This document shows positions 35,117 to 53,000 of a stretch of 64,000 nucleotides of DNA, in pieces. Position numbers and translations under genes: made by a program. This DNA comes from an uncultured Gammaproteobacteria bacterium. Lineage in GTDB: Bacteria; Patescibacteriota; Patescibacteriia; UBA2196; GWA2-42-15. The notes under the pieces were generated by a model. That model was not told where the DNA came from. It saw nothing but the letters and a program-made list of their open reading frames with translations, and searched no databases. The DNA lies in NCBI GenBank assembly GCA_964573135.1, contig CAZNIO010000005.1:3362-67361 (forward strand), read 5' to 3'. The stretch's first letter is position 1, and each line of letters opens with the position of its first letter.

Positions 35117-36427
35117 CTATCTTAATCTTAAATAATATAATTTATTAGTAAAGGCGTCCCAGAAATAAAGTCGGCTGCTATCATCCGTTATAAATATTTT
35201 TTTAACTTGAAAACTATCAATACTCTCAGACAATACAGGATAAGCAACCAGCCGACTCAAGCCAGTTGATAAATCAATTTTATAAAAAACGTCAGCTGAA
35301 TCATTTAATAAATCTGGATAAAAACCAGCACCTTCGGGCAAACTTACCGGCACAGCGCAATACACTGTCTTATTGTCACGTGCAAATACGCATTTGTCCA
35401 CCCATGTTGATAGCCCTAAATTAAAATTATTTCCGCCTATGTTATCCCCTTGCGCATCTGCCACCCAGAGAATTGGATTATAATTATTATCATAATCTAT
35501 CACCTGATAAAGAATTCGATCCCCCTGAGGCGACCATATTCCTTTAAAATTTGACCCTTCAACCACCAATGATTTATTATTCTCATCATTCAAACCAATA
35601 AAAAACACTTCTTCCTTGTTCAATCCTACTGATTTATGATACAAAGCAACAACTTCGTTAGTTGGTGACCAACTAACCTGCACACTGTCTCCCTGATCGC
35701 CCAAATGCTCTACCGCCTCAGTTTTACCACCAGTATCATCTGCTATTAGCAACCAGTTGTCCTCATCATTATCACTTATATATTTATATGCAATCCCCTC
35801 AGAATTATTACGCCAGCTAGGATCAGTCATACCTTGAGGCAAACTTATCTGCTTACCTGAAGCTAAATCATATATGATATTAGCTCCATCTGGATATTCA
35901 AGAATGACTTTTCTATTATCAGGCGAAAAATATGCATCTTCAACATGCGGAAACTCTTTGTCAGACAAAAGCGTTTTACCAGAGCCATCAAGAGAAATGC
36001 GATAAAATTTATCATCTTCAATACTCAAATAGCTAAGGCTACCTTGACCTAAATTAACATCAGCTAACTCATCCTCCATTACTCCAGTGACCTGGGTTAA
36101 AGATCCGCTAGCCACGTTATCAACCTTGCCTTCCACCTCAAAATCAGTAATTAAACCATCTTCTTCTCCTTGACTACCTGGCTCTCCAGGTAGTTGACCG
36201 GGTGGGCTAATAAGTCCAATAACGCCACCAACCCCAGTGCCAGGCAACTCACCACCAACTCCTACAGCCACATCGCCTCCAGCAGGGGCGTCTTCCGCCG
36301 GTTGTCGAAAAAATACCAACCACAAAACACCAATTATCAAACCAACTCCAATAATCAAAATCAAACCCCCTAAAATTATTCTCTTATAATCCAAATTAGG
36401 CATGTATTTAATATTATTTCCACTCAA
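35117..36427 (-). CDS. Membrane-anchored extracytoplasmic protein with Gly/Pro-rich linker and PD40/TolB-like beta-propeller repeats (tentative)
   Basis: N-terminal TM. Linker GVGGELPGTGVGGVIGLISPPGQLPGEPG. Repeated S(W)SPD/SPQ-type blades (YFSPDNRKVILEY, SWSPTNEVVALYH, IWSPQGDRILYQ). Confidence 0.45.
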   Translation of the reverse strand: MSGNNIKYMPNLDYKRIILGGLILIIGVGLIIGVLWLVFFRQPAEDAPAGGDVAVGVGGELPGTGVGGVIGLISPPGQLPGEPGSQGEEDGLITDFEVEGKVDNVASGSLTQVTGVMEDELADVNLGQGSLSYLSIEDDKFYRISLDGSGKTLLSDKEFPHVEDAYFSPDNRKVILEYPDGANIIYDLASGKQISLPQGMTDPSWRNNSEGIAYKYISDNDEDNWLLIADDTGGKTEAVEHLGDQGDSVQVSWSPTNEVVALYHKSVGLNKEEVFFIGLNDENNKSLVVEGSNFKGIWSPQGDRILYQVIDYDNNYNPILWVADAQGDNIGGNNFNLGLSTWVDKCVFARDNKTVYCAVPVSLPEGAGFYPDLLNDSADVFYKIDLSTGLSRLVAYPVLSESIDSFQVKKIFITDDSSRLYFWDAFTNKLYYLRLR

Positions 36428-36998
36428 TACTATCCACTAGCCACTCATCTTGCGCCCTTGTCATGGACACAAGCGCATTCTGATTGTATAAAGTAGTTTT
36501 ACCTTGATCGACCCTCTCTCTTCTCGTATAAACCAAAATATTAATATTTGAACCACTACTATTTAAGGTTTCAAGCTTAAAAGCCTGAGTGGTTATTCTT
36601 TCTTGGCTATCTTTACCCGAATTTCTTTCAATAAAATCATCAGCCCAAACTTTCATGCGATATGTCATCATTCCCCTTAATTCAGTAATATTTAGAAAAC
36701 CAGATTCAGGAGAATAACTACCAAGCATCTCAACAAAAAACTTAGCCCTGTTCTTAGCTACCACCTCTCGCTTGTCAAAATCCGACAGTTCTTTTTCTTC
36801 TTCATTCTTTTGTTCCTCGTCTCTAGCCGGAGGCAGTAAGCTACCACCAGGCTGATCATTCAAATTGATATCATTCAGCTTCTTAATTGGATTCTCTTGA
36901 CTGCCCTCTCTGTTAATTAAAAAATATCCTCCCACTCCAAGGAGTATAATAACCACAACAACCACTAGCGCTATAATAAACAACTTTTTTTTATCCAT
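36414..36998 (-). CDS. Bitopic membrane protein (possible VirB8-like position, function unknown)
   Basis: 194 aa. Single N-terminal TM then ~160-aa extracytoplasmic domain, immediately downstream of the VirB4-like gene. Placement by position and topology only. Confidence 0.3.
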   Translation of the reverse strand: MDKKKLFIIALVVVVVIILLGVGGYFLINREGSQENPIKKLNDINLNDQPGGSLLPPARDEEQKNEEEKELSDFDKREVVAKNRAKFFVEMLGSYSPESGFLNITELRGMMTYRMKVWADDFIERNSGKDSQERITTQAFKLETLNSSGSNINILVYTRRERVDQGKTTLYNQNALVSMTRAQDEWLVDSIEWK

Positions 36999-37015: not shown

Positions 37016-38908
37016 TTATTTCATCTTCCCTTCTCCTTCTTCTTTGTCAAACTCATCTTTAGCCTCCTCAATCTCAAGTAACTGCCGAGGATCTGAGGTT
37101 ATTATCTGGTCTTCGGTATATGATGCCACTACTTTAATTGCTACATGCTTAGACCCAGCAAAAAATATTCCCTCTCCCACACCTGATTCAAGTAATAAAT
37201 ATCTTTCACCCTGAGTTAACATAAACGTCTTAGAAACTACATCAATAGCAGCGGTTGATTGTCGCAATAACAACTGAATAGCCGAATTGGTTACAATCGC
37301 CTTTCCATATGGCGAATTTAAAAAATCGTTCACATCTTGAGTAATAGTAGTTAGTCCAAGATAATACTTACGGCACCTCTTAGCTAAAGCAAAAAGAAAT
37401 TTAGCACTATCTTCATACTGCATCAGCCACCAAGCTTCATCTACCACCAAAACTCTTTTCTTGAGTTCACTCCTTACAATATTCCATATATAATTAACAA
37501 TTGTATAAATAGCTATCGGTCGCAGCTCATCTTCCAAATCCCTCACAGAAAACACAACCAACTGATTAGCTACGTTAATATTGGTTTTATGATTCAATAA
37601 TCCAGAAAACGTACCTTGGGTATACTTACCCAATCTTTGAGCAACTGCATGCCCTCCCTCCATACCTTCGAGCACTTGTTCTAAATCAGACAAAATAGGA
37701 GGATCAACCTGTGATAAATCTGATCCAGGCGTAATATCATTTTTTGCATAAGTTTCAAGCAAAGCTTTATCAAGTAATGAATCTTCCTCATGGCTCAATT
37801 CGCCAACCATTAGCCGAACCAATCCTTTAACTGTAATAACAGCAGAACGTATAATATCCCCAGTTTTCTCCCCCTCCATCAAATTAGCCGGTAAATCAAA
37901 AGGATTAATTTTACTTTCAGAGCTTAAGGCAATATTAATATATGTTCCGCCAACCGCCTCGGATAAATACTGATATTCCCTTTCTGGATCAATAATAATT
38001 ACATCAGTGCCTTGCATCATTGAGCGCAACACCTCTAATTTGATAGCATAACTTTTACCAGCTCCAGACGTAGCAAAAACAACTGTATTGGCATTTTGTA
38101 AACTAAAACGATCAAACAAAATTAAACTATTATTATGTCGATTAATGCCATAAAGTATTCCATTATCTGAAGTTAGTTCTGATGACACAAAAGGGAAAGT
38201 CGAGGCAATCGGCGATGTATTCAAATTTGTATAGACCTGTAACTCATCACGGCCTAACGGCAACGTAGAATTAAACCCTCGCTCTGTTTGCCAAATAGCC
38301 CGTCTGGTATAAACTAGTTTCGAATTAATAGTTGATTCTATCCATTCCATGGCCTCTTCTAACTCTTTTTCAGAATCTGTATAAACAGTTAGATATAAGC
38401 CAAACTGGAAAAAATGTTCAACACCTTGAGTTAAGTCATCCCTTAATTTCTCAATGTCTTGATAAGCTGTCTCTTGCAAAGGATCTCTGGGCGCGCCTTT
38501 CTCTCGATCTGCCATAATTTGAGCGCCAACAGAACCAATTTTTTTCTTTAATTGCTTAAGCACGACCCCAGAAACTATAGGAAAAAAATACATAGATATA
38601 TCCATGGTAAAACTCGAATCAACCAACGAGTCAAACCAACCAACGGAGATATAACGAGGATAAGTGGTCACAAAAATAGTTGACACAAACTTACCATTGA
38701 GTTCCAAAAAGGTCGATTCAACCCGCATAGCCGCAGGCGCCATCAAGTCTTTTAATGTTACCACTCCTCGCTGATAAATTCGCTGGGCTTCTAAAATTTC
38801 TTTCTCTTGCTCAATTTGCACCTCTTCATTAACTGGGGCAACCTGGCTAGCCGGTACTTCTTCTTTTTTACCCGTCGTTTGTTTTTTTATTTCTGCCGGA
38901 TTAAACAT
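37016..38908 (-). CDS. VirB4/TrbE-family type IV secretion ATPase
   Basis: Walker A FATSGAGKSYAIK. IIDPEREY motif. Walker B LVVDEAWWLM. C-terminal RKYYLGLTTITQDVNDF. 630 aa. Confidence 0.85.
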   Translation of the reverse strand: MFNPAEIKKQTTGKKEEVPASQVAPVNEEVQIEQEKEILEAQRIYQRGVVTLKDLMAPAAMRVESTFLELNGKFVSTIFVTTYPRYISVGWFDSLVDSSFTMDISMYFFPIVSGVVLKQLKKKIGSVGAQIMADREKGAPRDPLQETAYQDIEKLRDDLTQGVEHFFQFGLYLTVYTDSEKELEEAMEWIESTINSKLVYTRRAIWQTERGFNSTLPLGRDELQVYTNLNTSPIASTFPFVSSELTSDNGILYGINRHNNSLILFDRFSLQNANTVVFATSGAGKSYAIKLEVLRSMMQGTDVIIIDPEREYQYLSEAVGGTYINIALSSESKINPFDLPANLMEGEKTGDIIRSAVITVKGLVRLMVGELSHEEDSLLDKALLETYAKNDITPGSDLSQVDPPILSDLEQVLEGMEGGHAVAQRLGKYTQGTFSGLLNHKTNINVANQLVVFSVRDLEDELRPIAIYTIVNYIWNIVRSELKKRVLVVDEAWWLMQYEDSAKFLFALAKRCRKYYLGLTTITQDVNDFLNSPYGKAIVTNSAIQLLLRQSTAAIDVVSKTFMLTQGERYLLLESGVGEGIFFAGSKHVAIKVVASYTEDQIITSDPRQLLEIEEAKDEFDKEEGEGKMK

Positions 38909-38984: not shown

Positions 38985-39668
38985 TTATTCCACATTTAAT
39001 TTACCAACATCAGTCATCTTTTGTCTTTTTGCAACCTCTGGGTTGTAAGTATTATAATACAGCTCTATCAAGCCTTGTGTATCAAGAAGCTGACTATTGA
39101 TCATCATACTAGATAATCCTCCTTGAACAACATTAACCCTTCTATCAATCTCTTGTTTGTATTTTAAAAATTGTTCTTTTTTTAAACCAATTGTCTTAAC
39201 TGCCTTAAAAGAATTAAAAAGCTTGCCGACCTTGCCTTGTTTCTTTTCGCCCTCTTGCGGATTATATGGAATCACTACATAAAATCTCTTTGATACAATA
39301 TCCCCCATCTCAACAAGATCTGCCACATATTTTCGATATTCACGAATCTGTATCTTTAAAAGTTCATTTGTTTGTTCTTTTTCTTTAGATTTCATTTCTT
39401 CCAAATATTTAGAAATATCTAAAGTCCTTGACTGTATTAATATTTGTACAGGAAAACTAATTGAATTAATAAAGGACATGTAGCCCTGAATAATAGCATT
39501 TTGTTCCTCTTCTGATTTCAACGCAAAATTTATGGAAGACGCTAAAAGCACAACAACCAAAGTATTATCTTTCATCACAACTGTGCTATCATGAATTTCC
39601 GCAATATCAATATATTGCTGGGTGGAAACTCTAAAATCACTCTTTTTCTTTTTTGTTTTTTCTGCCAT
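38985..39668 (-). CDS. Hypothetical cytoplasmic protein between the PrgI-like gene and VirB4
   Basis: 227 aa, K/E-rich, no TM. Confidence 0.4.
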   Translation of the reverse strand: MAEKTKKKKSDFRVSTQQYIDIAEIHDSTVVMKDNTLVVVLLASSINFALKSEEEQNAIIQGYMSFINSISFPVQILIQSRTLDISKYLEEMKSKEKEQTNELLKIQIREYRKYVADLVEMGDIVSKRFYVVIPYNPQEGEKKQGKVGKLFNSFKAVKTIGLKKEQFLKYKQEIDRRVNVVQGGLSSMMINSQLLDTQGLIELYYNTYNPEVAKRQKMTDVGKLNVE

Positions 39669-39685
39669 AAATATTAATTAATTGA

Positions 39686-40114
39686 TCAACCCTCATACCG
39701 ACCACCAGTATCAACCATCAATGCCAACTCAGCCAATCGCTGAGAGCTAGTAACCTTCTTTTTTGGCCCAATATCAGATTTAATTTCTCGTACATTTTCT
39801 TCTTCCTGCAATTTAGCTAAATCAGCCTGAGTTACCTGCTTGTGCCATACACGCACCTTAGGTCTTTTAATTGCCTCAATCATGCTACTTACAAATTGAG
39901 AAAAATTACGACCATTAACTTTCACAAATCCAAATACAATAATAAAAACTACGACAATAAAAGTTATCAAAGCGAATGCGCCAGTATCCAATAATTTAAA
40001 TGAACCAAAACACACTATCCCCCCAATTACCATCATTATAAACTGTCTAGTGGTAATAGGGCCAATAATTCTATCCTCAACATTTATAAATTGTGGTGCT
40101 ACAAATCTATCCAT
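39686..40114 (-). CDS. PrgI/VirB3-like small membrane protein
   Basis: IIGPITTRQFIMMVIGGIVCFGSF followed by a second TM, resembling the PrgI-family signature (GLTLRQF + TM hairpin). Located just upstream of the VirB4-like gene. Confidence 0.5.
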   Translation of the reverse strand: MDRFVAPQFINVEDRIIGPITTRQFIMMVIGGIVCFGSFKLLDTGAFALITFIVVVFIIVFGFVKVNGRNFSQFVSSMIEAIKRPKVRVWHKQVTQADLAKLQEEENVREIKSDIGPKKKVTSSQRLAELALMVDTGGRYEG

Positions 40115-40119
40115 AAAAA

Positions 40120-41094
40120 TTAATATGCTAATTTTCTATTTAAATCCGCAATAACATCAAATTCTTCTTTAGTTAAATATGGCTTACCCTCCTCTTTATA
40201 CTTATCAATAACGTCACTCACTGTCTTCCCTTCTGCCATACTAGTGGCTCCAAGCGTCAAATATACCCTATAAGTACCTGATTTTTTCCAGGCTTCAATA
40301 CCTTCTGCTTTTTTAGATACCGACTCATCCTCGAGTAAATTAATTTTCTGCAAAATTCTATCTGTCGCTTCATCTGGATTTTTTCCCATTTTGCGAAAAT
40401 ATTCAAGGGTCAATCCTTGTATTTCTTCAACTGCCCCTGTACTTTGATGTGAAAAAATATCTCTCTCTTCTTTATATAAATTCCGATGTTCATCATGTAC
40501 TACACTTTTCTTCTCCACTTTAGCCGGCTCTGCCTTTACTGGCAAAACCTGTTTTTTATCTTCTTCCACCAAAAGACCCTTTCCTCCACTCAAGATAGCT
40601 TCTTCAACTTTCCTTCTCTCAATCTCAATCAAGCTTATCACCTTACTTTGTGCTTCCTGATCTAACCCAACCCCACCAAGTTCAACAGCCTTAATCAATG
40701 CTTCCCTGGTATCAGCCAACCCTCGTACATTTCTAAATCTAGAAATAATAATATTACGTAAATTACGCGTTCTCATCTCCTCTCCATCAACCCCAGATTG
40801 TTCAACTATTTGGACTGCCAATTTCTCAATAAATTGAGAAATTGCCCGATTACCATCAACCACAGGTGCCTCAGTAATTTTCTTTACTTCTTCCTCGTCA
40901 TCAATCGAAAAATAAAAACCAGCTTGAGTGCTCCCAGGTTTAGTTATTTCCACTGGTGTATGAGGGATAATATCATCTTGGCGCACTATTACATCGTCTT
41001 CTTTTAAATCAATCAAATGATTATCCTTTAACAATTTAAAATCACCCTCACGGGTCTTAACTACAATTCCATTTTGTAAATCTTCTTTGAGCAT
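40120..41094 (-). CDS. Hypothetical acidic cytoplasmic protein
   Basis: 324 aa, no TM, E/K-rich. Confidence 0.4.
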   Translation of the reverse strand: MLKEDLQNGIVVKTREGDFKLLKDNHLIDLKEDDVIVRQDDIIPHTPVEITKPGSTQAGFYFSIDDEEEVKKITEAPVVDGNRAISQFIEKLAVQIVEQSGVDGEEMRTRNLRNIIISRFRNVRGLADTREALIKAVELGGVGLDQEAQSKVISLIEIERRKVEEAILSGGKGLLVEEDKKQVLPVKAEPAKVEKKSVVHDEHRNLYKEERDIFSHQSTGAVEEIQGLTLEYFRKMGKNPDEATDRILQKINLLEDESVSKKAEGIEAWKKSGTYRVYLTLGATSMAEGKTVSDVIDKYKEEGKPYLTKEEFDVIADLNRKLAY

Positions 41095-41153: not shown

Positions 41154-42533
41154 CTATCCCAAAATTTCCCAATAACCACCTTTGGTTGGGCCAGTTCTTC
41201 TTAAAATGCCTTTTTGCTTGAGTTTTGAAATATTATTTTTAGTGTTTCTAAGATTGATATTAAGCAAACAAGACAACTTTTCCGCAGTGATTTGAGGATC
41301 TTTTTTCATCTCTTTTAATGCTACCCTTTCGTTTTTAGACAATAATTTTATGGTGTCTTTTATGGTGTCTTTTATGGTGTCTTTTATGGTGTCTTTTCCA
41401 AATTTTTTCAAATATGTTTTGTCAGATAAAGTTACATAAAAAGAATGTTCATAAAATTCAAAATTCGGCTTTGGTAATTTTGCCAAATCCATCGCATCGT
41501 TTATTCTTTTAATGCCAGTTCCTAATTTCTCAACAAATATCGTTTTAGATAAAAGCGAAGCAATAATAGGGTTTCTGGTCTTGCTTACTTTTCCGAATTC
41601 ATCAGCTTTCAACCACTTAACCAGTCCTCCTGGATTAAACGCAACCAATTTATTCTTATACACCTCCACCAGAATATCAGAAGATTTATCAAAATAATCT
41701 CTATGCATAATCGCATTAACAATCGCTTCTCTGTATGCTTGTTCTGGATACTGAGATATTTCTTTTCTTCGAGCTGTTTTTATTTCAAATTCCACTTTTA
41801 CTCTTCTCTTTACAAAATTGATTGCCTGCTTTATATTTTCCAGCAAGCCATCATCATATATCTTCCTATCAAGAATATTCACTTTTTCATTTGTCTGATA
41901 TTCAGCGCAAACAACTTTTGAAGTTAAAAAAAATTTAGACGGGTTTTTCGCAAAAAAAAGAATGCCGGTATTATTAAATTTTAATGCGCCATCTATTTTT
42001 TGGGCAACGCCTAAATTAATAAGTATTGACCTCCTATCAAGATTTTTTGTTATTCCTGCTTCTTTTAAATAAATATTTAATTTTTCTGCGTCAAAATCTT
42101 CAGGATACCTAAAATCATTATTAATCTGTTCATCAAACCTTATTTTTCCTTCGCCAATTGCAAAATCCAATATTTCATCCCTGGTCATTTTCTGTGAATT
42201 TGCGACCTGCCTTAAATAAAATCCAGACGAACATTTGTATGGCTTATCTTTTCCTTCATCAACTTTAATAATCAAAATATTTTCAAATTCTTCTAAAGCT
42301 ATTTTTATTGACGGGTCGCAATTTCTCGCGATGTCTTGAATTTGTGATCTCAACTTGTTGGCGACATTAACACCTTTTACTTTTCCTTTATCATCCACTC
42401 CCAAAAATATACTACCACCGTTAGAATTGGCAAAAGCAATAATTTCTTTATCAATACTGCCAGCGCTTTCCTTAAACTCTAATTTCAATCCTTCGCCTTG
42501 CTGTAAAATAAATTGTAGTTCTTTTTTTGTCAT
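41154..42533 (-). CDS. Schlafen/AlbA_2 (divergent AAA, PF04326) domain protein with C-terminal HATPase_c_4-like region and wHTH; contains a (KDTI)n repeat
   Basis: N-terminal ELQFILQQGEGLKLEFKES is the hallmark AlbA_2 start. C-terminal HTH (ALKEMKKDPQITAEKLSCLLNINLRNTKNNISKLKQKGILRR). Internal KDTIKDTIKDTIKDTIK repeat. Confidence 0.7.
   Translation of the reverse strand: MTKKELQFILQQGEGLKLEFKESAGSIDKEIIAFANSNGGSIFLGVDDKGKVKGVNVANKLRSQIQDIARNCDPSIKIALEEFENILIIKVDEGKDKPYKCSSGFYLRQVANSQKMTRDEILDFAIGEGKIRFDEQINNDFRYPEDFDAEKLNIYLKEAGITKNLDRRSILINLGVAQKIDGALKFNNTGILFFAKNPSKFFLTSKVVCAEYQTNEKVNILDRKIYDDGLLENIKQAINFVKRRVKVEFEIKTARRKEISQYPEQAYREAIVNAIMHRDYFDKSSDILVEVYKNKLVAFNPGGLVKWLKADEFGKVSKTRNPIIASLLSKTIFVEKLGTGIKRINDAMDLAKLPKPNFEFYEHSFYVTLSDKTYLKKFGKDTIKDTIKDTIKDTIKLLSKNERVALKEMKKDPQITAEKLSCLLNINLRNTKNNISKLKQKGILRRTGPTKGGYWEILG
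41348..41397. repeat. Perfect tandem repeat, 12-bp unit (TTATGGTGTCTT), about 4 copies, in frame within the AlbA_2 gene
   Basis: Read directly from the sequence at 41347-41398. It encodes the KDTI tetrapeptide repeat on the minus strand. Confidence 0.9.
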
Positions 42534-42661: not shown

Positions 42662-44065
42662 TTAATAATTCCACTTAAACCTCCCTGTCTCTAAATCACC
42701 ATAAGCCAAACTCTCATATTCCATCTCTCCTGCCTTTCTAGCTAAATTAGCCATTGATACTCCCACAAGAACTGCATCTTCTTTCGTCATATTTAAACGT
42801 TTTTCTAAAATATACTGTAAAAACATAGCCACATATTTAACCGCGGCCACATCCTTTATAAATTCCTCTGCGTTTAAACCTTGTTTTTTTAAATATTCAC
42901 TCCAAAACTTCTTAAATCTATCATCTCTCTCAAAAACTTCTCTGATTTGCCTATTTTCTGCCAGAATAAACAAAGCGCCTAAAACTGCCTCTATTTGTCC
43001 CTCATTAATTGCATGATAAAATACATTTTTCAAATTCCCCACATCTCCTTTAGTATCTTTATTAATTGATTCTCCTTGAGTAAAAGCTCTAACAACCATT
43101 GGATTTACCAAAAACCCGCTAAAAGCGCTTTGCAACCTGGCTTGCGAAGAGATAGCTTGTGGTTTTTCTTTAATTAATTCCTCGTTTTGGCTAACAGGGC
43201 TCAAAACGTCTTTTTTTGTTACAGGCATTTTCTGATCAACTCCAATCGATGACTTTTTTCTGGGAACTAAAGTTTCTGGGATATCATCGATTAATCCTTT
43301 CTCTTTCATTTTCTTCAACGCATCTATAATTCTTGGATCAATAAAATCAAAGTGACCCTGTCTTAAAATAGCCAGCTTACCATTCACTGTCGTTATAACG
43401 GGATCCTCAAGCCCCGCTGGTTCAAAAGATGATAATTTAAGCCTTTCATATATTTTTACAAGATAGCCAATCTTTTTACGATCATTAATATTAAGAAGCT
43501 TAATATTAATGCCATTAATTAAATATTCCTCACTTTTAAGCTTATCAACCCTTCCTGTTCCCAAGGTTCGGTTATAATCCTGTAACCAATTACCAACTGT
43601 TCCTTTATATTTCTTACTACCAACTTCCAAATCAATTTCAGTAATCCTCTGCGTATTATCAAGCAGTGCTTTGCGTAATGCTGCTTTCAACTTATCTCTT
43701 TCTTCAAAAATAAGGATACTTTGTAATTTTGCAAATACCTTATCCATTATATCTATGTTCTCAGGTAACTCATAAACATATACAAAATTTTCCTTAAACA
43801 AATTAACAATATCTTCATGTGAACGCAGGGGCAAAGATATTAATTTATTCAATTTAATTAACTTTTCATATCTCTTATAACCGTCAGCCCCTAAAACACC
43901 AATCAACTCCACCCTATTTCGATAAATAACCGCACCAATTTTTTTAACAAACCAATCAGCATCCTCAGCGTTATCAAAAAACGCCACATTTTCTTTAAAA
44001 TGCTTTTCATATAACTCAAGTAGTTTCACATTCTTCAAATCTTCTAATGTAGTTTCACTTGCCAT
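42662..44065 (-). CDS. Hypothetical cytoplasmic protein
   Basis: 467 aa, no recognisable motifs. Confidence 0.4.
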   Translation of the reverse strand: MASETTLEDLKNVKLLELYEKHFKENVAFFDNAEDADWFVKKIGAVIYRNRVELIGVLGADGYKRYEKLIKLNKLISLPLRSHEDIVNLFKENFVYVYELPENIDIMDKVFAKLQSILIFEERDKLKAALRKALLDNTQRITEIDLEVGSKKYKGTVGNWLQDYNRTLGTGRVDKLKSEEYLINGINIKLLNINDRKKIGYLVKIYERLKLSSFEPAGLEDPVITTVNGKLAILRQGHFDFIDPRIIDALKKMKEKGLIDDIPETLVPRKKSSIGVDQKMPVTKKDVLSPVSQNEELIKEKPQAISSQARLQSAFSGFLVNPMVVRAFTQGESINKDTKGDVGNLKNVFYHAINEGQIEAVLGALFILAENRQIREVFERDDRFKKFWSEYLKKQGLNAEEFIKDVAAVKYVAMFLQYILEKRLNMTKEDAVLVGVSMANLARKAGEMEYESLAYGDLETGRFKWNY

Positions 44066-44078
44066 AATTTATCTTAAA

Positions 44079-47000
44079 TTATATATGTTTCATAAACTCA
44101 GCCTTATCTTTCAAGGACGAATAATTAGCATAAACGCCTCTTTGTCTGAACCCTTTTGCCATAGACCCTAAAATTTCTGACATTTTCATACCTTGATATT
44201 TAGATCCAACCCCACGCGCAGTAATCAACCCTTGCTCTTCAAGTTTTTTTATCTCTCCCAACTGCTCCATAGCAATTTTTTGAAAAGCACTGCCATTAAA
44301 CTCACCCCTCTCAAAACGGTTCATCAAATCGTCTTGCGTGCCTATTAACATCAATTTTCCTGATAATGCCAACTCATAATCACCGCCAGCTGTCTCTCCG
44401 CCGTACCCCAATCTATTAGTATTTTGCAAAAATGCACGAGAAGGTTGTTTTAATACCTCATTAGCCACTGCAGCCGCATGTTCTTCTTCCTTCATCCACT
44501 TTGGCATACCTTTTTCAAAAGTTATTAACCGACTTGTCTCAGTATGACCCCTCGATTCATTAATATAGGCAATTTCATTCATTAACCCCAAAGCCTGATT
44601 CTTCGTCATGCCGGCTTTGCCCTCAAGTATTTCGTTAGAAAAACTTTGCATGCCTTTAGCATTACTGGTATATCCACTATGATTTAAAAATTCATTATCA
44701 TTATAATCTTGAGCTGCTTTTTTCAACAAAACTGCCAATCTTGGCCTATCCCTATTTTTGACAGCATCGTCAATCAGTGAATTCAACTCTTCTGCTTCCA
44801 TAGAATCCTTAGGTAAATTCTGCAACTCCTCACTCTCAAGCAAACGATAGGCGTTATCAGCCTGCAAGGTTCGAGGAATATTGGATACTTCGGCTAAAAT
44901 AGACTTTTTAATCCCCGTCAATTTCTTAGATTCTTCTTTGACGTCATCTTTTGTTTTTATGTCTTGGCCACCGATTCCTTTCATGTTCCCGTTAGCAAAA
45001 ACAACGGCTCCCTGCATTTCCCAAATATTTTTCTGCATCTTCCTAGCTTCCCCTGATATTTTTCCCTCCTCGTTTTTAACTGATTTTTTATTTACCTTAA
45101 GCTCTTCCTTAGACAACTTAGCAATCCACTCTCCCTTGCTATCTTTACGCGCCATTTTTTTCTGTTCTTTCAATTTTTCAGCAAGCTCATATCCAACGTT
45201 CTCCCTTTCTCCCTCTTTTCCTTCTTTTCTCAACTTTTTCATCTCTTGTTTCAGCGCGCCCATCTCCTCTTCCAATTCAGTTGCTCTACCTATTTTAACT
45301 TCCTTTTGATTAGCCGTTAATCCCCCTTTTTCAACTTCTTCTAATTCTTTCTTCTTTTCACTAACCTTCTCATTTAAACTATCAATACCCCTTTTTTTCA
45401 ATTCACTTTCATCTTTTTGATTTATACGAGCCTTTTGTCTTTCTTGCCAATCTTCATCTCTATCAACCTGCATCTTTGCAATATCCTTCTTAACTATGCT
45501 ATTAAAATCCCTTATCTCAGTAATTGGTTTACCATCATCACCTGTTGTTGTAATTAGCGCAATACCATTTTTTTTATTAGCATAATCATCAGCTATTTTA
45601 TCGCGAACCATATCTTTCTTTTTCTGTTTATCTTCCGTACTATCTCCCAATGCCGCATATTGAACAGTGTTTTCCAATTCCTTTGCATATGCCGATCTTA
45701 ATCTACTATAAGCTGGGTCATCTTCATCCATGTCTCCCTGCACGATATCGCCCTTTTCGTCAATCAAAATTACTCGCCCCTGTCCTCCCGTAATCTGCCG
45801 CTCATTATAGTTGGTCCTGTTCTCTTTTTCTTGTTTAAAAAGCGCATCCTTGCCTTCTTCAACCGCATCTATATGCTTTGCCCCAGCTTGATAATTCAAA
45901 AGCTCATCCATTCCCATATCCTCAAGCTTCTCATCAGCTTTATCCTGCGCCTTTGTTCCATATTTTTCAGCTCCAGACCAAGTTCTCATCATCTTTAATT
46001 TACCTCTAAGCCCACCATAGTATTTATCATAATCGTCTTGATCTCCTTGTCGCATATACGTCATTCCTAACCTGCCCCAACCCTCTCTGTAAAGTGCTTG
46101 ACTCACATCTCCTGCTTTTTTCTGTCCCTCAATCTCATCCATTGCTTTATTTTTTTCTTTAATAGCTTTTCTCTTGCGATGTTTCCTCATTGGATTAAGC
46201 GCACTAAAACCAGTTGTTTTATACAGTTTTCGTTCCCCATAAGCTGCCAACTGAAATGGTTTTTTAGCTGTCCATTTGGCGGCAGACACAAGTCCTCTCT
46301 GCGCCACATCTTTAACCTTGGTTACTGCGTTCATGCCAATATTTCCACCCATCACCCCCATTTGTTGAGTGATTAATAACGAGGCTATAAGAAGAGCAAT
46401 CGTTGTCATATAGTCAAACATCCTCTGAGGACTCGAAATTTTCGATGCCAAATACTCAACATATTTAGCCCTGTCAACATGACCTTCCGGTTTTTGCCGA
46501 TATAGCTCTATAACATGACTTTTATCTTCCTCTCCAATCTGCTGCAATATTCCAAAAGAAAGCCACAGGAAAAAAGCCAGAATAGGGCCAACTATTATAT
46601 ATTTTGTTAAATACGACCAATACTGACCAAACATTCCAATTTTGTCCAAAGGCCCATTTGGCATGGCTGAAGCAATGAAAACAATAGGGGAGAAAATAAG
46701 TAAAATCCATAACATTATAATCCTAGCCAAAAGAACAGCAATCATCGTCAAAATAACCAAAGCCGCAATCAAAAGCATAATAAATGCCAATATAACAGAG
46801 CCAGCAATAGCATAATGATCTATCTCCTGATCAGTTTTACCTATAACATCACGAAGCTGTAACATTTGTTCTACCCCAAGGGCATTAAGAAATCCTCCAG
46901 CTGCCCCATCGGCCCAGGCATTTACAAAGGTCATCATAACCGTTTGACCCAAATCAATGAATAACCCAACAATCATCTTAGAAAAATTGACCAAAACAGC

Positions 47001-47453
47001 CGCTATTATAAGCTTAGGTAAAAGTTTTTTATACTGATAAGTCTCAATATTAAATAAAGTCCCAAAGGCAATTAAAAGAATTATTACTATAAAAAACATA
47101 TTAGCAAGATCTCGCACCATCACCCAACCCAAAGCCACAGCCCGTGAATCAACAAAATTATTAAACTCAAGCACTCCAATCACCACGCTAATAAAAAGAG
47201 TTAACAGTTTACCAACTACGCTTATAAAAAAAGCAAACAAATCTGCCAAAAGCTTAGCCAGTCTCTGCCCCGGCAAATTGCCACCTTGCGGCTCCGTCAT
47301 GGTAGCTGTACCTCCGGTAGCTGTACCTTGCCCTAAAGCAGTATCAGCAAAAACGCCAAAAACAACCATTATGACTAATAATAGCAAGCCAGTGACAATA
47401 AATAGTTTTCTTTTTTGATTAATTTTTCTAAACATAATTATAAATCGGAACAA
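44079..47453 (-). CDS. VirB6/TrbL-like polytopic membrane protein with ~700-aa C-terminal charged coiled-coil extension
   Basis: The first ~400 aa contain 6-8 TM helices with a Gly/Thr-rich periplasmic loop after the signal anchor, as in TrbL/VirB6. The remainder is K/E-rich with heptad-like periodicity. Confidence 0.55.
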   Translation of the reverse strand: MFRFIIMFRKINQKRKLFIVTGLLLLVIMVVFGVFADTALGQGTATGGTATMTEPQGGNLPGQRLAKLLADLFAFFISVVGKLLTLFISVVIGVLEFNNFVDSRAVALGWVMVRDLANMFFIVIILLIAFGTLFNIETYQYKKLLPKLIIAAVLVNFSKMIVGLFIDLGQTVMMTFVNAWADGAAGGFLNALGVEQMLQLRDVIGKTDQEIDHYAIAGSVILAFIMLLIAALVILTMIAVLLARIIMLWILLIFSPIVFIASAMPNGPLDKIGMFGQYWSYLTKYIIVGPILAFFLWLSFGILQQIGEEDKSHVIELYRQKPEGHVDRAKYVEYLASKISSPQRMFDYMTTIALLIASLLITQQMGVMGGNIGMNAVTKVKDVAQRGLVSAAKWTAKKPFQLAAYGERKLYKTTGFSALNPMRKHRKRKAIKEKNKAMDEIEGQKKAGDVSQALYREGWGRLGMTYMRQGDQDDYDKYYGGLRGKLKMMRTWSGAEKYGTKAQDKADEKLEDMGMDELLNYQAGAKHIDAVEEGKDALFKQEKENRTNYNERQITGGQGRVILIDEKGDIVQGDMDEDDPAYSRLRSAYAKELENTVQYAALGDSTEDKQKKKDMVRDKIADDYANKKNGIALITTTGDDGKPITEIRDFNSIVKKDIAKMQVDRDEDWQERQKARINQKDESELKKRGIDSLNEKVSEKKKELEEVEKGGLTANQKEVKIGRATELEEEMGALKQEMKKLRKEGKEGERENVGYELAEKLKEQKKMARKDSKGEWIAKLSKEELKVNKKSVKNEEGKISGEARKMQKNIWEMQGAVVFANGNMKGIGGQDIKTKDDVKEESKKLTGIKKSILAEVSNIPRTLQADNAYRLLESEELQNLPKDSMEAEELNSLIDDAVKNRDRPRLAVLLKKAAQDYNDNEFLNHSGYTSNAKGMQSFSNEILEGKAGMTKNQALGLMNEIAYINESRGHTETSRLITFEKGMPKWMKEEEHAAAVANEVLKQPSRAFLQNTNRLGYGGETAGGDYELALSGKLMLIGTQDDLMNRFERGEFNGSAFQKIAMEQLGEIKKLEEQGLITARGVGSKYQGMKMSEILGSMAKGFRQRGVYANYSSLKDKAEFMKHI

Positions 47454-47767
47454 ATACTTAATGGTCCATCTCCCCCAAAAAGAGAGTAAACAGAGCTAAT
47501 AGCCTGGACTGATGGAAGATAGCATGCTCCATAGGCAAGAAATACAATAAAAGCAACTAAAACCCCCACACCAAATAATACCAAAGCATAAGCTAATATT
47601 AAAACCAATCCCTTATTTTCTTTCCCTAATTTAGCCCAAGAAAAAATATTAGTTCCACCAGATAAAGCAATCCCAGCAACCGCCTTAGCTGTCTCTTTCT
47701 TTTTTTTTATACTAGCATTTTTTTTCTTATTTTGATTATCATTTTTCGGCATAAAATTATTACTCAT
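47438..47767 (-). CDS. Small K-rich membrane protein (one long TM), possible pilin/VirB2-like candidate
   Basis: 109 aa. Lys-rich N-terminus, 28-aa hydrophobic span, short C-terminal tail with Cys. Overlaps neighbours on both sides. Confidence 0.35.
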   Translation of the reverse strand: MSNNFMPKNDNQNKKKNASIKKKKETAKAVAGIALSGGTNIFSWAKLGKENKGLVLILAYALVLFGVGVLVAFIVFLAYGACYLPSVQAISSVYSLFGGDGPLSICSDL

Positions 47768-48848
47768 ATTCTTTACATTTATTCATTAATTGACCAACAA
47801 GTATCAGCTTACTAGCAGCAGCCTTCCAGCCAGAGGTTGCTTCGTTGGCTGTCATAAACCAATTAATTCTCAGCTCATTACTTTCATCCACAGATATAGT
47901 ACAATGCTCATCTTTACCACAAAGGTTGCCTAAATAATAATTCCATTTAAGTGGAAAACTCAAAAATTTAGACTGAACATATAAAAAACCACATCCTTTC
48001 ATATTAGTATTACTATAATCAATAGACCAAGTATTTGTACCAAATCCAAATCCAACATTATCCTTAAAGGTTAATTCAGATACCTTTTGGACTGACTCTG
48101 GGTCATCTTTAGTCATATAGCAAATATCTTTTGAAACACCAAGCCCCATACAAAACTGATCTTCTTTCTTCGGCTCTGTTTGTTCTAACAACATATATAA
48201 ATTGCCACACTCAGGGACTTCACCTTCGTCTAAATCTGGAATTAATTTTTGACTTTTTTTACAAATTCCAATAACATTTTTATTATCCTTAAGCGTAATA
48301 CTAGCTGGCTGCAACTTCAATTCAGTCAAAGCCGGATTAATCCATGATAATATACTATACGATCCAAGTGCTAATACTAATCCCATTATAGCTGATATTA
48401 TAGTAGTTTTAGCTCCTGCTATCTTTTGAGCGTTACCAGCTGCAAGCAACCATTTAAAACCTCCCAGCATTATCATAACTACTGCTAACAATCCGACAAC
48501 ACCGATAAACAAATTATATATACCTCTTATGTATTGAGGGAAGCCTGCTACGCAATGACGGGTACCAGTCTTATTTTGCTCAAGAGTATGTTTATCTAAA
48601 TTATACACCGAATATGTATATGTACAATCATGTGTTGCTCCAGGTATGCCAATCTGTAGTTCAATAGGAAAAGTCTCAGGGCACTTGTCCTGACATGTTC
48701 GCGCCATTACATCCATCCCGACAATAAACACTCCCACTAAAACAATATTTAAAATCAATAATTTATAAAAAATTAATTTCATATTTTTATGTCTTCGACC
48801 CAGGCAATAACTCCTCATTCCGACTAATTTTAATAATATAAATTTCAT
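47760..48848 (-). CDS. Modular membrane protein, paralog 1: variable Cys-containing N- and C-terminal ectodomains around a conserved two-helix hydrophobic core (TrbC/VirB2-like hairpin, tentative)
   Basis: Core HCVAGFPQYIRGIYNLFIGVVGLLAVVMIMLGGFKWLLAAGNAQKIAGAKTTIISAIMGLVLALGSYSILSWINPALTELKLQPASITL is identical to paralog 2. The flanking domains differ. Confidence 0.55.
   Translation of the reverse strand: MKFILLKLVGMRSYCLGRRHKNMKLIFYKLLILNIVLVGVFIVGMDVMARTCQDKCPETFPIELQIGIPGATHDCTYTYSVYNLDKHTLEQNKTGTRHCVAGFPQYIRGIYNLFIGVVGLLAVVMIMLGGFKWLLAAGNAQKIAGAKTTIISAIMGLVLALGSYSILSWINPALTELKLQPASITLKDNKNVIGICKKSQKLIPDLDEGEVPECGNLYMLLEQTEPKKEDQFCMGLGVSKDICYMTKDDPESVQKVSELTFKDNVGFGFGTNTWSIDYSNTNMKGCGFLYVQSKFLSFPLKWNYYLGNLCGKDEHCTISVDESNELRINWFMTANEATSGWKAAASKLILVGQLMNKCKEYE
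48150..48559. repeat. Direct repeat copy A (~410 bp, near-identical to 49241..49649; last ~270 bp perfectly identical)
   Basis: Read directly: ...ACTAGCTGGCTGCAACTTCAATTCAGTCAAAGCCGGATTAATCCATGATAATATACTATACGATCCAAGTGC...GCTACGCAATGA occurs in both genes. Confidence 0.9.
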
Positions 48849-48862
48849 TAGCTAACTTCGTC

Positions 48863-49921
48863 TTATTGACAGTCCTCTGCTCCACTAAACATAGCAACAT
48901 TAACCCACCCCCTTAACTCGCTCGGCCAATTACTCCTGCCATAATGCCAATGAATCTTATGTTTTGACATATCAACAGCACAATACTTGCCCGTCGGACA
49001 CCTCTCACTAATTGCTGATCCAGTTCTCTCGCCATCGTCATTAATAAAAAAATACATATCCCCACATTTAGAATCTGGAATTGGATCCGTGCCTCCCAAC
49101 TCTCTGGCTATAACACTGTAAGGAACAGCGAGCCCACCAATAGCAGCAATATTGAGTGTCCGTACGGGGGTAACAGTACCGTTTTTATCACGAAAACATA
49201 TATAGGGTGACATTGAATTAAACGGCGGTTTATATCCCTCACAAAACTGATCTTCTTTCTTAGGCTCTGTTTGTTCTAATAACATATATAACTTGCCACA
49301 CTCAGGGACTTCACCTTCGTCTAAATCTGGAATTAATTTTTGATTTTTTTTACAAAAACCAATAACATTTTGACTGCCCGTAAGCGTAATACTAGCTGGC
49401 TGCAACTTCAATTCAGTCAAAGCCGGATTAATCCATGATAATATACTATACGATCCAAGTGCTAATACTAATCCCATTATAGCTGATATTATAGTAGTTT
49501 TAGCTCCTGCTATCTTTTGAGCGTTACCAGCTGCAAGCAACCATTTAAAACCTCCCAGCATTATCATAACTACTGCTAACAATCCGACAACACCGATAAA
49601 CAAATTATATATACCTCTTATGTATTGAGGGAAGCCTGCTACGCAATGAGTCGTAACCGTCTTAACATCCATACCAGCCTTAGGCTTTTTATCAAAATTA
49701 TAATAATCAGCCAAACAACTGTAAGATGTAGATACTCCGGGTATACCAATTTGTAATTTTATCGGAGTAGGATCAAGGCAAGCTTTTGGCTTATTATTTA
49801 CACATTTACTCACTGCCAAAGCGTTATTTACCGAAAACGCACCAAAACCGACAAATACAATAATAGTTAAAAATAATGCCAATAGAATACGCACACTTAC
49901 TCTTTTCTTAACAATCTTCAT
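48863..49921 (-). CDS. Modular membrane protein, paralog 2 (same conserved core, different termini)
   Basis: See paralog 1. N-terminal signal anchor, Cys-rich N-terminal domain, identical core, distinct C-terminal Cys-containing domain. Confidence 0.55.
   Translation of the reverse strand: MKIVKKRVSVRILLALFLTIIVFVGFGAFSVNNALAVSKCVNNKPKACLDPTPIKLQIGIPGVSTSYSCLADYYNFDKKPKAGMDVKTVTTHCVAGFPQYIRGIYNLFIGVVGLLAVVMIMLGGFKWLLAAGNAQKIAGAKTTIISAIMGLVLALGSYSILSWINPALTELKLQPASITLTGSQNVIGFCKKNQKLIPDLDEGEVPECGKLYMLLEQTEPKKEDQFCEGYKPPFNSMSPYICFRDKNGTVTPVRTLNIAAIGGLAVPYSVIARELGGTDPIPDSKCGDMYFFINDDGERTGSAISERCPTGKYCAVDMSKHKIHWHYGRSNWPSELRGWVNVAMFSGAEDCQ
49241..49649. repeat. Direct repeat copy B
   Basis: See copy A. 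A few substitutions and a 1-bp indel in the first ~140 bp, then perfect identity. Confidence 0.9.
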
Positions 49922-50007: not shown

Positions 50008-53000
50008 TTACCTCACAACAATCTCTATCTCATCACTAGTAAGTTCATTACCCCCGTGGTCAGTAATAGTTAATGACGCGAAATAAATACCAGCCAATGG
50101 ATAACTATGTGTTCTCAAAATATGACTATCAATATCATCAGCAATAGTAGTTTCATAAGAATCATTATCACCAAAATCCAAAAAAACAAGCATTGGATAT
50201 TCACCCACTGAAACAAACACATCTGCGTCAAAATTAACAGTTAAAGGCGCTACTCCAAGTATAGGACTAGCAACAAAATCCTGAATAACCAATCCATTAT
50301 CAGGTATAACTGGTAGTATAACGGGTGGTTGATTTGCAGCCCTTATAACCAAAGTTACAGGTATTGTTGCAGTTCCTCCATTACTTAAAATCCGTAATTC
50401 ACCAGAATGATTACCAACAGACATTCCCGATATTCCTGCAACTGTTACTACTATTGGTTCGTCGTCTTTCCCGCCCATCGGATCAATCGTCATCCACGCC
50501 ACATCTTCTCTAACAGACCAGACCAAGACTCCTTCGCCATTGTTGGATATATTAATTATCTGATCGTTATCATCTACAGCCCCATCATTGATGGCTGTAA
50601 AAACCAACTCACTTTGGTCAAGGCTTAAAATAGGAGGGTTCTCAATGGCCCTTTTTTCCTTATAAACCACAACTCTCATCAGTGGCTCATGCCACTCATC
50701 CCTGCCCTGCCCCCAATTATCTTCAAGCTGAATTCTTATATTAAACTCACATTTACCAAGAGTATCATCACAAGCCGGATCACTCGCATCATATTTATAA
50801 TGATGCACTAAAATATGAGGATTACTCATATCGCGCCCAGCAATTCTAAGCCCAGCCTCTGTAGATTTTTCATCGTCTCCCCAATCAACTGTATATCGTA
50901 CCAAAGGAATTTGATTAGGATTAACAAATGAATCAAATTTGAGCACTGCAGTACCCTCAATAAATATGGTTCTATCTAAAAAATTACTATTATTAATTAA
51001 AATATTTTTAACCTGGGGCGGACTGCCATAATAGTCAGTTAAGTCATAATTATCCCTATTATTCATCTTCACATACCGATATCTGTGTATACCACTGGTG
51101 TTATCAAATTTCCACTCCCAAACATCAAATGATTTAGCAAATATCTTACTCAAATTATATTCACCCTTAGATAAATTCATCGGTCTTAACACGAGATCAG
51201 TATTAATTAAATCATTGCCACCCTGCCCCACGACCAAACTATTTAGCTTGTCAAATTCGTCATCCTCAGAAATATCATTAAAATACACTTGGGAAGCACT
51301 AATACCAACACATAATCCATACTTGCCAGTCACTATGTCCAGCTCGCAATCTTCTCTTCCATTTCGACAAGGCTGTCCAATTTTTGATCCTGAAACACAA
51401 GTAGCTGGACCAAAAAACTCAGGTGGTGGATTAGATAAGCTATATTTTTCACAAACGCTTGTAACACAATTACCCCTTATTAAACCATAAGCCCCACCTG
51501 CTCGTGGCTGATAAGGGCTCACTTCCCCCATTGTCTTATCAGCTGGCTCTACATAAATAGCGCTTGTCCATATTGACGGATCCTCAACAGGATCTGGCGG
51601 AATAATTGAACCAAATAGCATATAGTCATCACCTTTGGTATAACCCACCCATGATGGATCGTCAACATTCCCAGAATTCAATCTCTTCAGCCACGCCGCA
51701 TTAAAACCATCTAAATCAACCACTTGAGCAATTTTTAAACAAGGCTCGCTTAAATAAAAAGTTAAACTTAAGGTAGCTTTATCTGTCCCGTCACCTGAAT
51801 CTGATGGATCATCACACTCTTTAAAATAAATTTCATATAAATCCCCGGTATCTTCATAAAAACTTAATTTCATTCCCAAAAAATTACCTATCTTGCCATC
51901 ATTATCATTACCGCAATCCAGATAAGTATCACTAAATATATCTTCACCCTCTCTCTCTCCTTCATTATATTGAAAAACCCAAGTGTTACCCTCCCAAAAA
52001 TAACCTGTATACCCCATTTTATTTGATTCGCCACCTCTTGGAGCAGTTTCATTCATGCCTAAAGGCCCATCACTCTTGGCGTTCAACAAGCTCCCGCTCA
52101 AATTCCATTGGCTACCACTGCCATTAGTATGTAACCTAACTCCCAATATTTCACTCCGGTTCAACCTAGACCCATCAAAATTCCAAAATATATAGCTAGC
52201 TTCTCCAACATTACGATCCATAATTGTAACGGGATACTCATAAGTCACCCTATACTCTCCAGATTCATAAGGAGAAATATATGACTGTCTATCTTCTGTC
52301 TCCAAAATATTATTATCACTTTCTCTTCTACTTACCCACTCACACCCAGACTTAGTGTTACACACCTCTCGGGTTTTATTTCCCCCACACGTCATCTGTG
52401 GCGAACACGCCCCTAAGTCAACATTCTCCCTCTTGTAATTCCCAGCTGCTTCGAGACAATAGTATAATGGTTTTCTACCTGTATACCCAGCTACATCATC
52501 CACTCCAAAAACATTAGATTCACCTCGTACCACATCTACCGGCCACCACTGTAAACACATTGGCTGACTGGTATATTGTCTATCTGTCCATCCTGGATCA
52601 GGCTCCACGCAATAACCTTTCCACCCTTTATAATCTTTACCCTCATCTTCATCATAATAGTCGCATGCCGGTGCATTTTCACGCGGATAAAGACGACAAG
52701 AACGGGAAATAAAATTTAAATCATCTCCAATTTGTAAAGCACCTTTCATCGATACATTATCAAGATAAAAGGTATCCATATTTGCCTTAATATCACCACT
52801 TACAAAAGCAACGTTTAATTTATTCAAATTACTGCTCCCGCCATAGTCCACAGGTCCGTTCACTCGCATAATAAATTCCTGCCAATATGGCTCCAGCCTC
52901 ACCTTTTTCTTTACTGGGCTTACCAACGGATCTATTTCATTAAAATCATAATAAGTAAAAGGTATATAACCACCTGTTCCACCATCTCTATCCGGTGCCA

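Follow-up and report, generated by a model that had tools for sequence, protein, structure and literature searches.

The 64,000-nt stretch of contig CAZNIO010000005.1 (assembly GCA_964573135.1) analyzed here, hereafter the window, harbors on its minus strand the gene of an extended VirB6-like protein, located within a type IV secretion system (T4SS) locus. The protein consists of an N-terminal polytopic membrane domain followed by a hydrophilic tail of ~740 aa (K+R 18%, D+E 17%). Rather than a rod or ruler, the tail is an assembly of three parts, namely, a basic juxtamembrane segment, a charged and jointed tether, and a conserved helical C-terminal domain (CTD). The CTD occurs both fused to VirB6-like proteins and as a free gene product, and it is paralogous to a part of the 467-aa protein encoded by the next gene downstream. 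With moderate confidence, the protein is interpreted as a VirB6-type subunit of the T4SS of an ultrasmall Patescibacteria bacterium that carries a cytoplasmic tether and a docking or adaptor domain. The features on which this interpretation is based are given below; all positions refer to the whole window, and residue numbers are counted from the ATG at 47435.

44079..47435, minus strand: extended VirB6-like gene, 1118 aa from the ATG, 100% identical to the public protein P0001
46311..47435, minus strand: polytopic VirB6/TrbL-like domain (residues 1–375), ~8 hydrophobic helices
47331..47435, minus strand: basic N-terminus and first hydrophobic segment (residues 1–35), signal peptide- or signal anchor-like
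45936..46310, minus strand: basic juxtamembrane helical segment (residues 376–500), K+R ~23%, partly conserved
44946..45935, minus strand: K/E/D-rich linker (residues 501–830), poorly conserved, with broken helices and two short β-hairpins
44823..45410, minus strand: heptad-like stretch (residues ~676–871), four predicted helices of 25–39 aa
44136..44945, minus strand: α-helical CTD (residues 831–1100, ~270 aa), conserved and globular
42662..44065, minus strand: conserved partner protein of 467 aa, soluble, without Cys or Pfam match, beginning 13 nt past the VirB6-like stop
42668..43072, minus strand: sub-domain of the 467-aa protein (residues 332–466), homologous to the N-terminal half of the CTD

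The tail had been described in a first-pass annotation as a coiled coil of 700 residues with heptad-like periodicity that could act as a stalk or ruler. The periodicity was evaluated by permutation of the hydrophobic spacing at a/d positions and by the Fourier power at period 3.5. By these tests, the spacing exceeded the 95th percentile of the shuffled sequences only at residues ~676–871, and the Fourier power at period 3.5 gave z<1 in four of the five tail segments and z = −0.3 for the whole tail. Heptad-like periodicity was thus present in the ~676–871 stretch but neither elsewhere nor over the tail as a whole. In the AlphaFold2 (AF2) model, 73% of the tail was helical; the longest helix was of 40 aa, and the helices were interrupted by Gly-containing loops. 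The juxtamembrane segment was predicted as 81% helix with a mean predicted local distance difference test (pLDDT) score of ~73. The linker showed mean pLDDT values of 49 for residues 491–670 and 72 for residues 671–800, and the charge of the tail was maximal in the 600–800 region (K+R 23–27%, D+E 23%). A single 700-residue coiled coil is therefore not supported, as the tail lacks overall periodicity, has no helix longer than 40 aa, and ends in a globular domain; a stalk or ruler is likewise at odds with a composite tail of short, broken helices. Foldseek searches of PDB and BFVD with the tail model returned nothing below E 0.05 and only generic long-helix proteins, and the full-length family profile gave only low-complexity matches among PDB sequences. 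No tandem repeats were detected in the tail, and an origin by tandem repetition was excluded on the basis of this empty search. Two short and similar β-hairpins, GRVILIDEKGDIVQG (residues ~553–567) and ALITTTGDDGKPITEIR (residues ~626–642), were observed in the charged linker at about 45510–45777, in a low-confidence part of the model. Two candidate tail-only proteins, P0241 and P0202, were discarded as signs of a split just behind the membrane domain: the frame in L011 remains open as far as the end of the contig, and L012 is a truncated sequence.

The CTD, which is not a low-complexity sequence, was modeled with a pLDDT of ~89; its invariant residues include N, E, K, R, and G, and it has the motifs NDNE, GY..D..G...F, LGM..Q.A, HW..AR, E..K...R....NRLAxGGE, and R.EFN. 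Among 1.84 billion cluster representatives, the CTD profile matched 572 clusters at E<=1e-3, of which 490 were retained at E<=1e-10, and the domain was mostly C-terminal in proteins of 900–1250 aa. It showed no match to Pfam, and its profile found nothing credible among PDB sequences. Resemblance of the NDNE...GMQ residues to an SLT/lysozyme-like domain was considered and rejected, as these residues are not conserved, neither Pfam nor fold comparison supports the relationship, and the stand-alone forms carry no signal peptide. About 15 CTD representatives are short proteins (340–500 aa) with an initial Met, in which hydrophobic segments, if any, fall within the CTD. Two complete stand-alone CTD genes, P0214 (L005, 499–1764) and P0189 (L008, 1830–3029), code for proteins without a signal peptide or transmembrane (TM) segment, and each is flanked on one side by a virB6-like gene encoding a charged tail without the CTD and on the other by a homolog of the 467-aa protein gene. 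In another locus, the CTD is present as a complete open reading frame (ORF) with an intergenic region upstream (P0236; L009, 53–1543). Judged from these gene models, the CTD is able to exist as a separate polypeptide without a signal peptide, and the stand-alone genes indicate fission or fusion of the tail domain.

The relationship between the CTD and the downstream gene product was revealed by profile comparison. Alignment of the N-terminal half of the CTD with the C-terminal ~135 residues of the 467-aa protein using hhalign gave a probability of 90% and an E-value of 1.6e-6 over 111 columns; with the single sequence, the E-value was only 0.004. The tail of P0049 matched the CTD-like region of the 467-aa protein with an E-value of 4e-8. 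A homolog of the 467-aa protein follows the virB6-like gene in all the related loci examined (L001, L005, L006, L007, L008, and L010).

The N-terminal domain is accepted as a remote homolog of VirB6/TrbL because its homologs match TrbL, TrwI chains rank first, though weakly, among the fold matches of its model, and the locus is that of a T4SS; membership in the family is thus by transitive homology. Hydropathy analysis revealed ~8 hydrophobic segments within the first ~375 aa, as against the minimum of five hydrophobic helices for a polytopic all-helical domain. The AF2 model of residues 1–400 was all-helical, with a pLDDT of 84.6 and a predicted TM-score (pTM) of 0.78. Across the family, the N-terminus contains 2.6 K+R residues with a net charge of +2.4, and AxA follows the first hydrophobic segment in the family consensus. 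The invariant residues of the domain include W104, N112, N150, F151, Q164, R238, W243, P250, G283, F288, and W291. Pfam TrbL (PF04610) was matched by 8 of the 17 family N-domains, with a best E-value of 9.9e-8; the full-length homolog P0090 scored 26.5 bits compared to the gathering threshold of 25.9, and P0004 scored 25.6 bits. The homologs matching PF04610 are related to the window protein at E-values of 1e-50 to 1e-134, and the family consensus matched TrbL with 20.6 bits (E 4e-4). A precomputed match of the window protein to TrbL_3 (PF19590) was graded weak. In a Foldseek search of PDB with the N-domain model, the top five hits were R388 TrwI/VirB6 chains, with probabilities of 0.92–1.0 over ~300 columns. 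Some results weigh against the assignment. The window protein had no hmmscan match to Pfam TrbL even at E<=10, the TrwI matches reached E-values of only 0.02–0.05 with TM-scores of 0.25–0.48, and neither the family profile nor the N-domain profile found a match among PDB sequences. The NCBIfam scan of the VirB6-like protein at E<=1 gave 0 families. Direct assignment by hidden Markov model (HMM) was accordingly abandoned, as the Pfam (E<=10) and NCBIfam (E<=1) searches were empty for the VirB6-like protein, its tail, and the CTD. The earlier assignment to VirB6/TrbL is therefore supported, for a remote homolog only, by the homologs, the top-ranking but weak fold matches, and the T4SS context, and not by an HMM match of the protein itself above threshold.

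The tail probably lies in the cytoplasm, a placement that we infer from the separable CTD, the paralogy with the 467-aa protein, the tail composition, the absence of cysteine, and the topology. Given eight hydrophobic segments and a basic N-terminus, the two termini face the same side of the membrane, and a K/R-rich stretch directly follows the last hydrophobic segment. The VirB6 proteins of Agrobacterium tumefaciens and Brucella as well as ComB6 have a periplasmic N-terminus and a cytoplasmic C-terminus (PMC7648143). The 467-aa protein is soluble and has no signal peptide. The VirB6-like protein contains 0 Cys in 1118 residues, and the median for the tails of the family is also 0. The exported proteins of the locus contain 12–63 Cys (12–13 in the pilins and 63 in each of the giant proteins), and a DsbA-like gene is present. 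The composition log-odds of all three tail parts fell within the cytoplasmic range of a classifier that is small and was trained on the window's own proteins. Between the two functions offered earlier for the tail, a cytoplasmic scaffold is thus better supported, by inference, than an outward stalk.

Several observations weigh against a cytoplasmic tail. Only two helices of R388 VirB6 span the membrane, and TM counts based on hydropathy are unreliable for VirB6 (PMC12857230). AF2 draws residues 207–247 as a single 41-residue helix. Owing to these two points, the TM count, and hence the side on which the tail lies, is uncertain; the side flips if residues 207–257 traverse the membrane once. The charges of the loops, taken without the tail, gave no discrimination between the two topologies. 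The C-termini of extended VirB6 proteins of Anaplasma are reported to be surface exposed, the extensions of VirB6-3/-4 being reportedly accessible to trypsin, and the C-domain of TraG acts outside the cytoplasm (PMC7648143). In addition, P0124 (L001, 1195–2865, 556 aa) is composed of a T4SS_pilin hairpin, a K/E-rich linker, and the CTD; the C-terminus of such a VirB2-like two-TM hairpin is normally outside, and this topology would place the CTD outside the cell. The tail might then be a stalk, spacer, or adhesin that crosses the cell wall and displays the CTD to a host bacterium, comparable to Anaplasma VirB6-3/-4 or F-plasmid TraG. Such an extracellular tail is considered rather unlikely. The stand-alone CTD proteins and the 467-aa paralog lack a signal peptide, the tail is free of Cys whereas all the clearly exported proteins of the locus are rich in it, its composition is cytoplasm-like, and no continuous helix or coiled coil is long enough for a rigid ruler. 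As for P0124, it is known from a single contig, has a K/R-rich stretch after its last TM segment, and its gene is placed between a pilin gene and a 467-aa protein homolog, where the second pilin gene, the small TM gene, and virB6 would be expected. Being a singleton in this syntenic position, it probably arose by a deletion or fusion in which the VirB6 membrane domain was lost, and its value as proof of an extracellular tail was down-weighted for the same reasons.

Other explanations concern the function of the tail rather than its side. It is improbable, though in keeping with several features, that the tail or the CTD is cargo, cleaved off or separately made and exported through the T4SS into the host cell as an effector. 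The CTD is found fused and free without a signal peptide inside T4SS loci, as is typical of T4SS substrates; a variable linker is combined with a conserved domain; and cleavage and release have been proposed for the extended VirB6 C-termini of Rickettsiales (PMC7648143). No cleavage site was conspicuous in the sequence or in the alignments of the family, although no search was dedicated to such sites. Strong conservation of the CTD over ~490 clusters argues against an effector, since host-facing effectors usually diversify. It is also missing, without replacement, in many close relatives, and a paralog in a conserved core-neighbor gene is better suited to a component of the apparatus. No greater likelihood is given to a tail that is a non-specific, disordered, charged spacer, retained as neutral baggage or as an entropic bristle, with a CTD that has no dedicated function. 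The mid-tail is poorly conserved and its model is of low confidence, tail length in the family varies (typically ~550 to ~790 aa), and the CTD is missing from many relatives. The last point also weighs against the preferred interpretation, as the CTD is dispensable in close relatives: 76 of the 120 nearest N-domain relatives are without it, and P0006, with an N-domain ~50% identical (50–53% by alignment), has neither the CTD nor a separate CTD gene in its locus. Moreover, the whole-tail model gave no fold analog of the CTD in PDB or BFVD and hence no functional lead. A mere spacer is nevertheless difficult to reconcile with the invariant polar residues of the CTD (N, E, K, R, and G), with its pLDDT of ~89, with its presence in 490 clusters at E<=1e-10, and with its retention as a gene of its own when split from virB6. 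The juxtamembrane segment is conserved as well, and a long tail is kept in nearly all the members examined despite strongly reduced genomes.

The preferred interpretation, a VirB6-type subunit with a cytoplasmic tether and a docking tail, could operate as follows. By analogy with R388 TrwI and pCF10 PrgH/PrgF, the first ~375 residues would serve as the central platform for the neighboring VirB2-like pilins and the substrate path. The tether would hold one CTD per subunit, and possibly several per machine, near the cytoplasmic face, and the CTD together with the paralogous soluble 467-aa protein would serve as a docking or adaptor module. As the loci have no coupling protein nearby, the partner of the module could be VirB4 or cargo. 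A further-reaching proposal, regarded as quite unlikely, is that the CTD and the 467-aa protein constitute a Patescibacteria-specific cytoplasmic module, tethered to or recruited by VirB6, which takes the place that a coupling protein or VirB11 has elsewhere in substrate docking or gating. If this holds true, the machine served by the module is an essential, non-conjugative one that may transfer host-derived macromolecules, and the repeated fusion and fission of CTD and virB6 would represent a Rosetta-stone signal of a physical interaction between VirB6 and the CTD.

The long ORF reported earlier at 44079–47453, with its polytopic N-terminus and K/E-rich tail, was found as described, and the peptides quoted from it are present in its translation. 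The uninterrupted ORF 44079..47453 on the minus strand would code for 1124 aa when begun at the TTG at 47453, which is 18 nt upstream of the ATG at 47435, codon 7 of the mechanical ORF. The ATG is favored as the real start, because it is situated 2 nt past the TAA of the upstream 109-aa gene, is the start in every public gene call (P0001, 1118 aa, 100% identical), and agrees with the N-termini of the homologs, M1 being nearly invariant in one family alignment and invariant in another. The reported 16-bp overlap with a small TM gene exists only with the TTG start; with the ATG, it becomes a gap of 2 nt. The small gene (47438..47767), which had been called downstream, is located upstream (5′) of the VirB6-like gene, and the tight coupling proposed for the two genes holds with the 2-nt gap. 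On the other side, 13 nt separate the VirB6-like gene from the 467-aa gene. Promoter and terminator scans gave results at chance level only. More than 200 homologs were found (best E 1e-134) with an architecture common to all, and the ORF is hence not one that arose by chance. A polytopic domain of ~350 aa followed by a tail of typically ~550–790 aa recurs in nearly all of the 120 closest homologs. With its VirB6 domain and ~740-aa hydrophilic tail, the protein corresponds to an extended VirB6, defined as a VirB6 domain with one or more large hydrophilic domains in a central or C-proximal position (PMC12857230).

The remaining genes of the locus and its surroundings are as follows.

56567–61060 and 50008–55905, minus strand: giant Cys-rich proteins of 1497 and 1965 aa, respectively, 63 Cys each
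55912–56544: cohesin-domain protein, between the genes of the giant proteins
47760–48848 and 48863–49921, minus strand: two tandem VirB2-like T4SS_pilin genes, 362 and 352 aa, with Cys-rich ectodomains
47438..47767, minus strand: small membrane protein of 109 aa, whose stop lies 2 nt before the VirB6-like ATG
41154–42533, minus strand: Schlafen AlbA_2/HATPase_c_4/HTH gene, between the 467-aa and 324-aa genes
40120–41094, minus strand: conserved 324-aa protein
39686–40114, minus strand: PrgI/VirB3 (E 2.5e-11)
38985–39668, minus strand: TraC-like protein
37016–38908, minus strand: VirB4-like ATPase (NCBIfam CD1110 family, E 1e-105)
36414–36998, minus strand: conserved 194-aa membrane protein
34408–35112, minus strand: DsbA-like thioredoxin, ending the cluster

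Read 5′ to 3′ on the minus strand, the order is two giant Cys-rich proteins, two T4SS_pilin genes, the 109-aa membrane protein, the VirB6-like gene, the 467-aa protein, the Schlafen/AlbA_2 gene, the 324-aa protein, PrgI, the TraC-like protein, the VirB4-like ATPase, the 194-aa membrane protein, a 436-aa protein, and the DsbA-like thioredoxin. VirB4-, VirB3-, and VirB2-type genes thus accompany the VirB6-like gene, as expected of a T4SS cluster, and the set of VirB4, TrsD/TraC-like protein, PrgI, VirB6, and pilins is that of a Patescibacteria T4SS. No relaxase or type IV coupling protein (T4CP) domain was found among the window ORFs scanned (~27 of 60), and the remaining scanned ORFs are of housekeeping type (RecG, ClpB, glycosyltransferases, CCA enzyme, and KsgA). 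Judged by its gene content, this is a chromosomal, non-conjugative T4SS locus of the Patescibacteria type. Such loci comprise VirB4, TrsD, PrgI/VirB3, VirB6, and VirB2-like pilins, and an adjacent T4CP or relaxase is usually missing (Quinonero-Coronel et al., 2025, PMC12102498). In Ca. Southlakia epibionticum, the T4SS is essential and the T4CP is non-essential (PMC12102498); virB6 is among the genes reported as essential there (Wang et al., 2023, as cited in PMC12102498).

The nearest named relatives belong to Candidatus Kuenenbacteria, Uhrbacteria, Falkowbacteria, Buchananbacteria, and Kerfeldbacteria. The order VirB6-like, 467-aa, variable slot, 324-aa, and PrgI is common to a Falkowbacteria contig (L007) and a close relative (L010), and synteny with the former extends through the TraC-like protein, VirB4, and the 194-aa protein. 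A Uhrbacteria contig, which ends early, retains the pair of VirB6-like and 467-aa proteins. The place of the Schlafen gene is occupied by SAM synthetase in Falkowbacteria (L007) and by 23S_rRNA_IVP genes in L010, so that this site inside the operon appears to accept variable insertions. At the position of the 109-aa gene, L010 has a 144-aa membrane protein, and no sequence similarity was detectable between the two; the 109-aa protein may be PrgF/VirB2-like or another small T4SS component. The tandem pilins share a near-identical central block (69% identity over 230 aa, including long stretches at 100%) and differ in the Cys-rich parts at either end (13 and 12 Cys), a pattern suggestive of a recent duplication or of gene conversion while the ectodomains diversify. 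Giant proteins are also encoded 5′ of the T4SS cluster in L006 (2750 aa), L007 (3049 aa), and L010 (CBM_4_9). The DsbA-like gene fits with disulfide formation in the Cys-rich ectodomains of the pilins and giant proteins, unlike the Cys-free VirB6 tail.

The length of the protein had been taken as unusual, canonical VirB6 proteins being of 300–400 aa. This view is outdated, as "extended VirB6" is a named subtype, and the VirB6 proteins of monoderm MPF_FA systems are 700–900 aa long (PMC12857230). Extended VirB6 proteins and the T4SS and VirB6 homologs of Patescibacteria are thus already published (PMC12857230, PMC12102498), and according to the review the role of the large extensions is not yet known (PMC12857230). 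The Patescibacteria T4SS has been reported as the first T4SS essential to its own bacterium, with its cargo still unknown (PMC12857230, PMC12102498). The literature searched contained no description of a dissection of the tail, of the CTD family in its fused and free forms, or of the paralogy with the adjacent gene. The analysis does not define a new kind of system; it resolves a vaguely described long charged tail into defined, testable parts. The leads it provides are modest and concrete, i.e., an unannotated domain of ~270 residues in hundreds of candidate phyla radiation (CPR) lineages, its free form, and a paralogous adjacent module, and they are targets for work on the T4SS of cultivable Saccharibacteria or related CPR.

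Comparison with known systems places the protein closest in setting to the VirB6 of Patescibacteria (PMC12102498), with the same gene set and order (pilins, VirB6, PrgI/VirB3, TrsD/TraC-like protein, and VirB4), a chromosomal location, and no relaxase or T4CP detected nearby. In that study, VirB6 was reported as HMM matches only, and the long tail, the CTD, and the 467-aa neighbor were not mentioned. Similar to the N-terminal domain, R388 TrwI/VirB6 (PDB 7O3V, 8RT9) is all-helical, very hydrophobic, and encoded beside VirB2-, VirB3-, and VirB4-type genes; however, its PDB chains of ~260–270 residues have no hydrophilic tail, HMM-detectable sequence similarity is lacking, and the TM-scores lie in the range already given. 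F-plasmid TraG likewise combines a VirB6-like membrane part with a large separable C-terminal domain, but this domain is periplasmic, acts in mating-pair stabilization and entry exclusion, and could not be related to the CTD by sequence or fold. The VirB6 analogs of monoderm MPF_FA systems (TcpH of pCW3, Orf15 of Tn916, and ConG of ICEBs1) also have a polytopic N-terminus and hydrophilic or unstructured regions (PMC12857230). Models of the TcpH, CD1112/Orf15, and ConG types gave no match in NCBIfam (E<=1) or Pfam. In contrast to the MPF_FA conjugative elements, the present locus is non-conjugative, although its VirB4 is closest to the CD1110 family, and the CTD was seen only in VirB6-like architectures or in their stand-alone neighbors, besides the pilin fusion P0124. 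The extended VirB6 proteins of Rickettsiales (RvhB6, Anaplasma VirB6-3/-4, and the Ehrlichia paralogs) share the plan of a TrbL/VirB6 domain with a large hydrophilic C-terminal extension. Their tails differ in being repeat-rich, up to thousands of residues long, reported as surface exposed, and present as multiple paralogs of diderm P-type systems, whereas the protein described here is a single-copy one without tandem repeats, whose tail ends in a conserved domain and probably lies in the cytoplasm.

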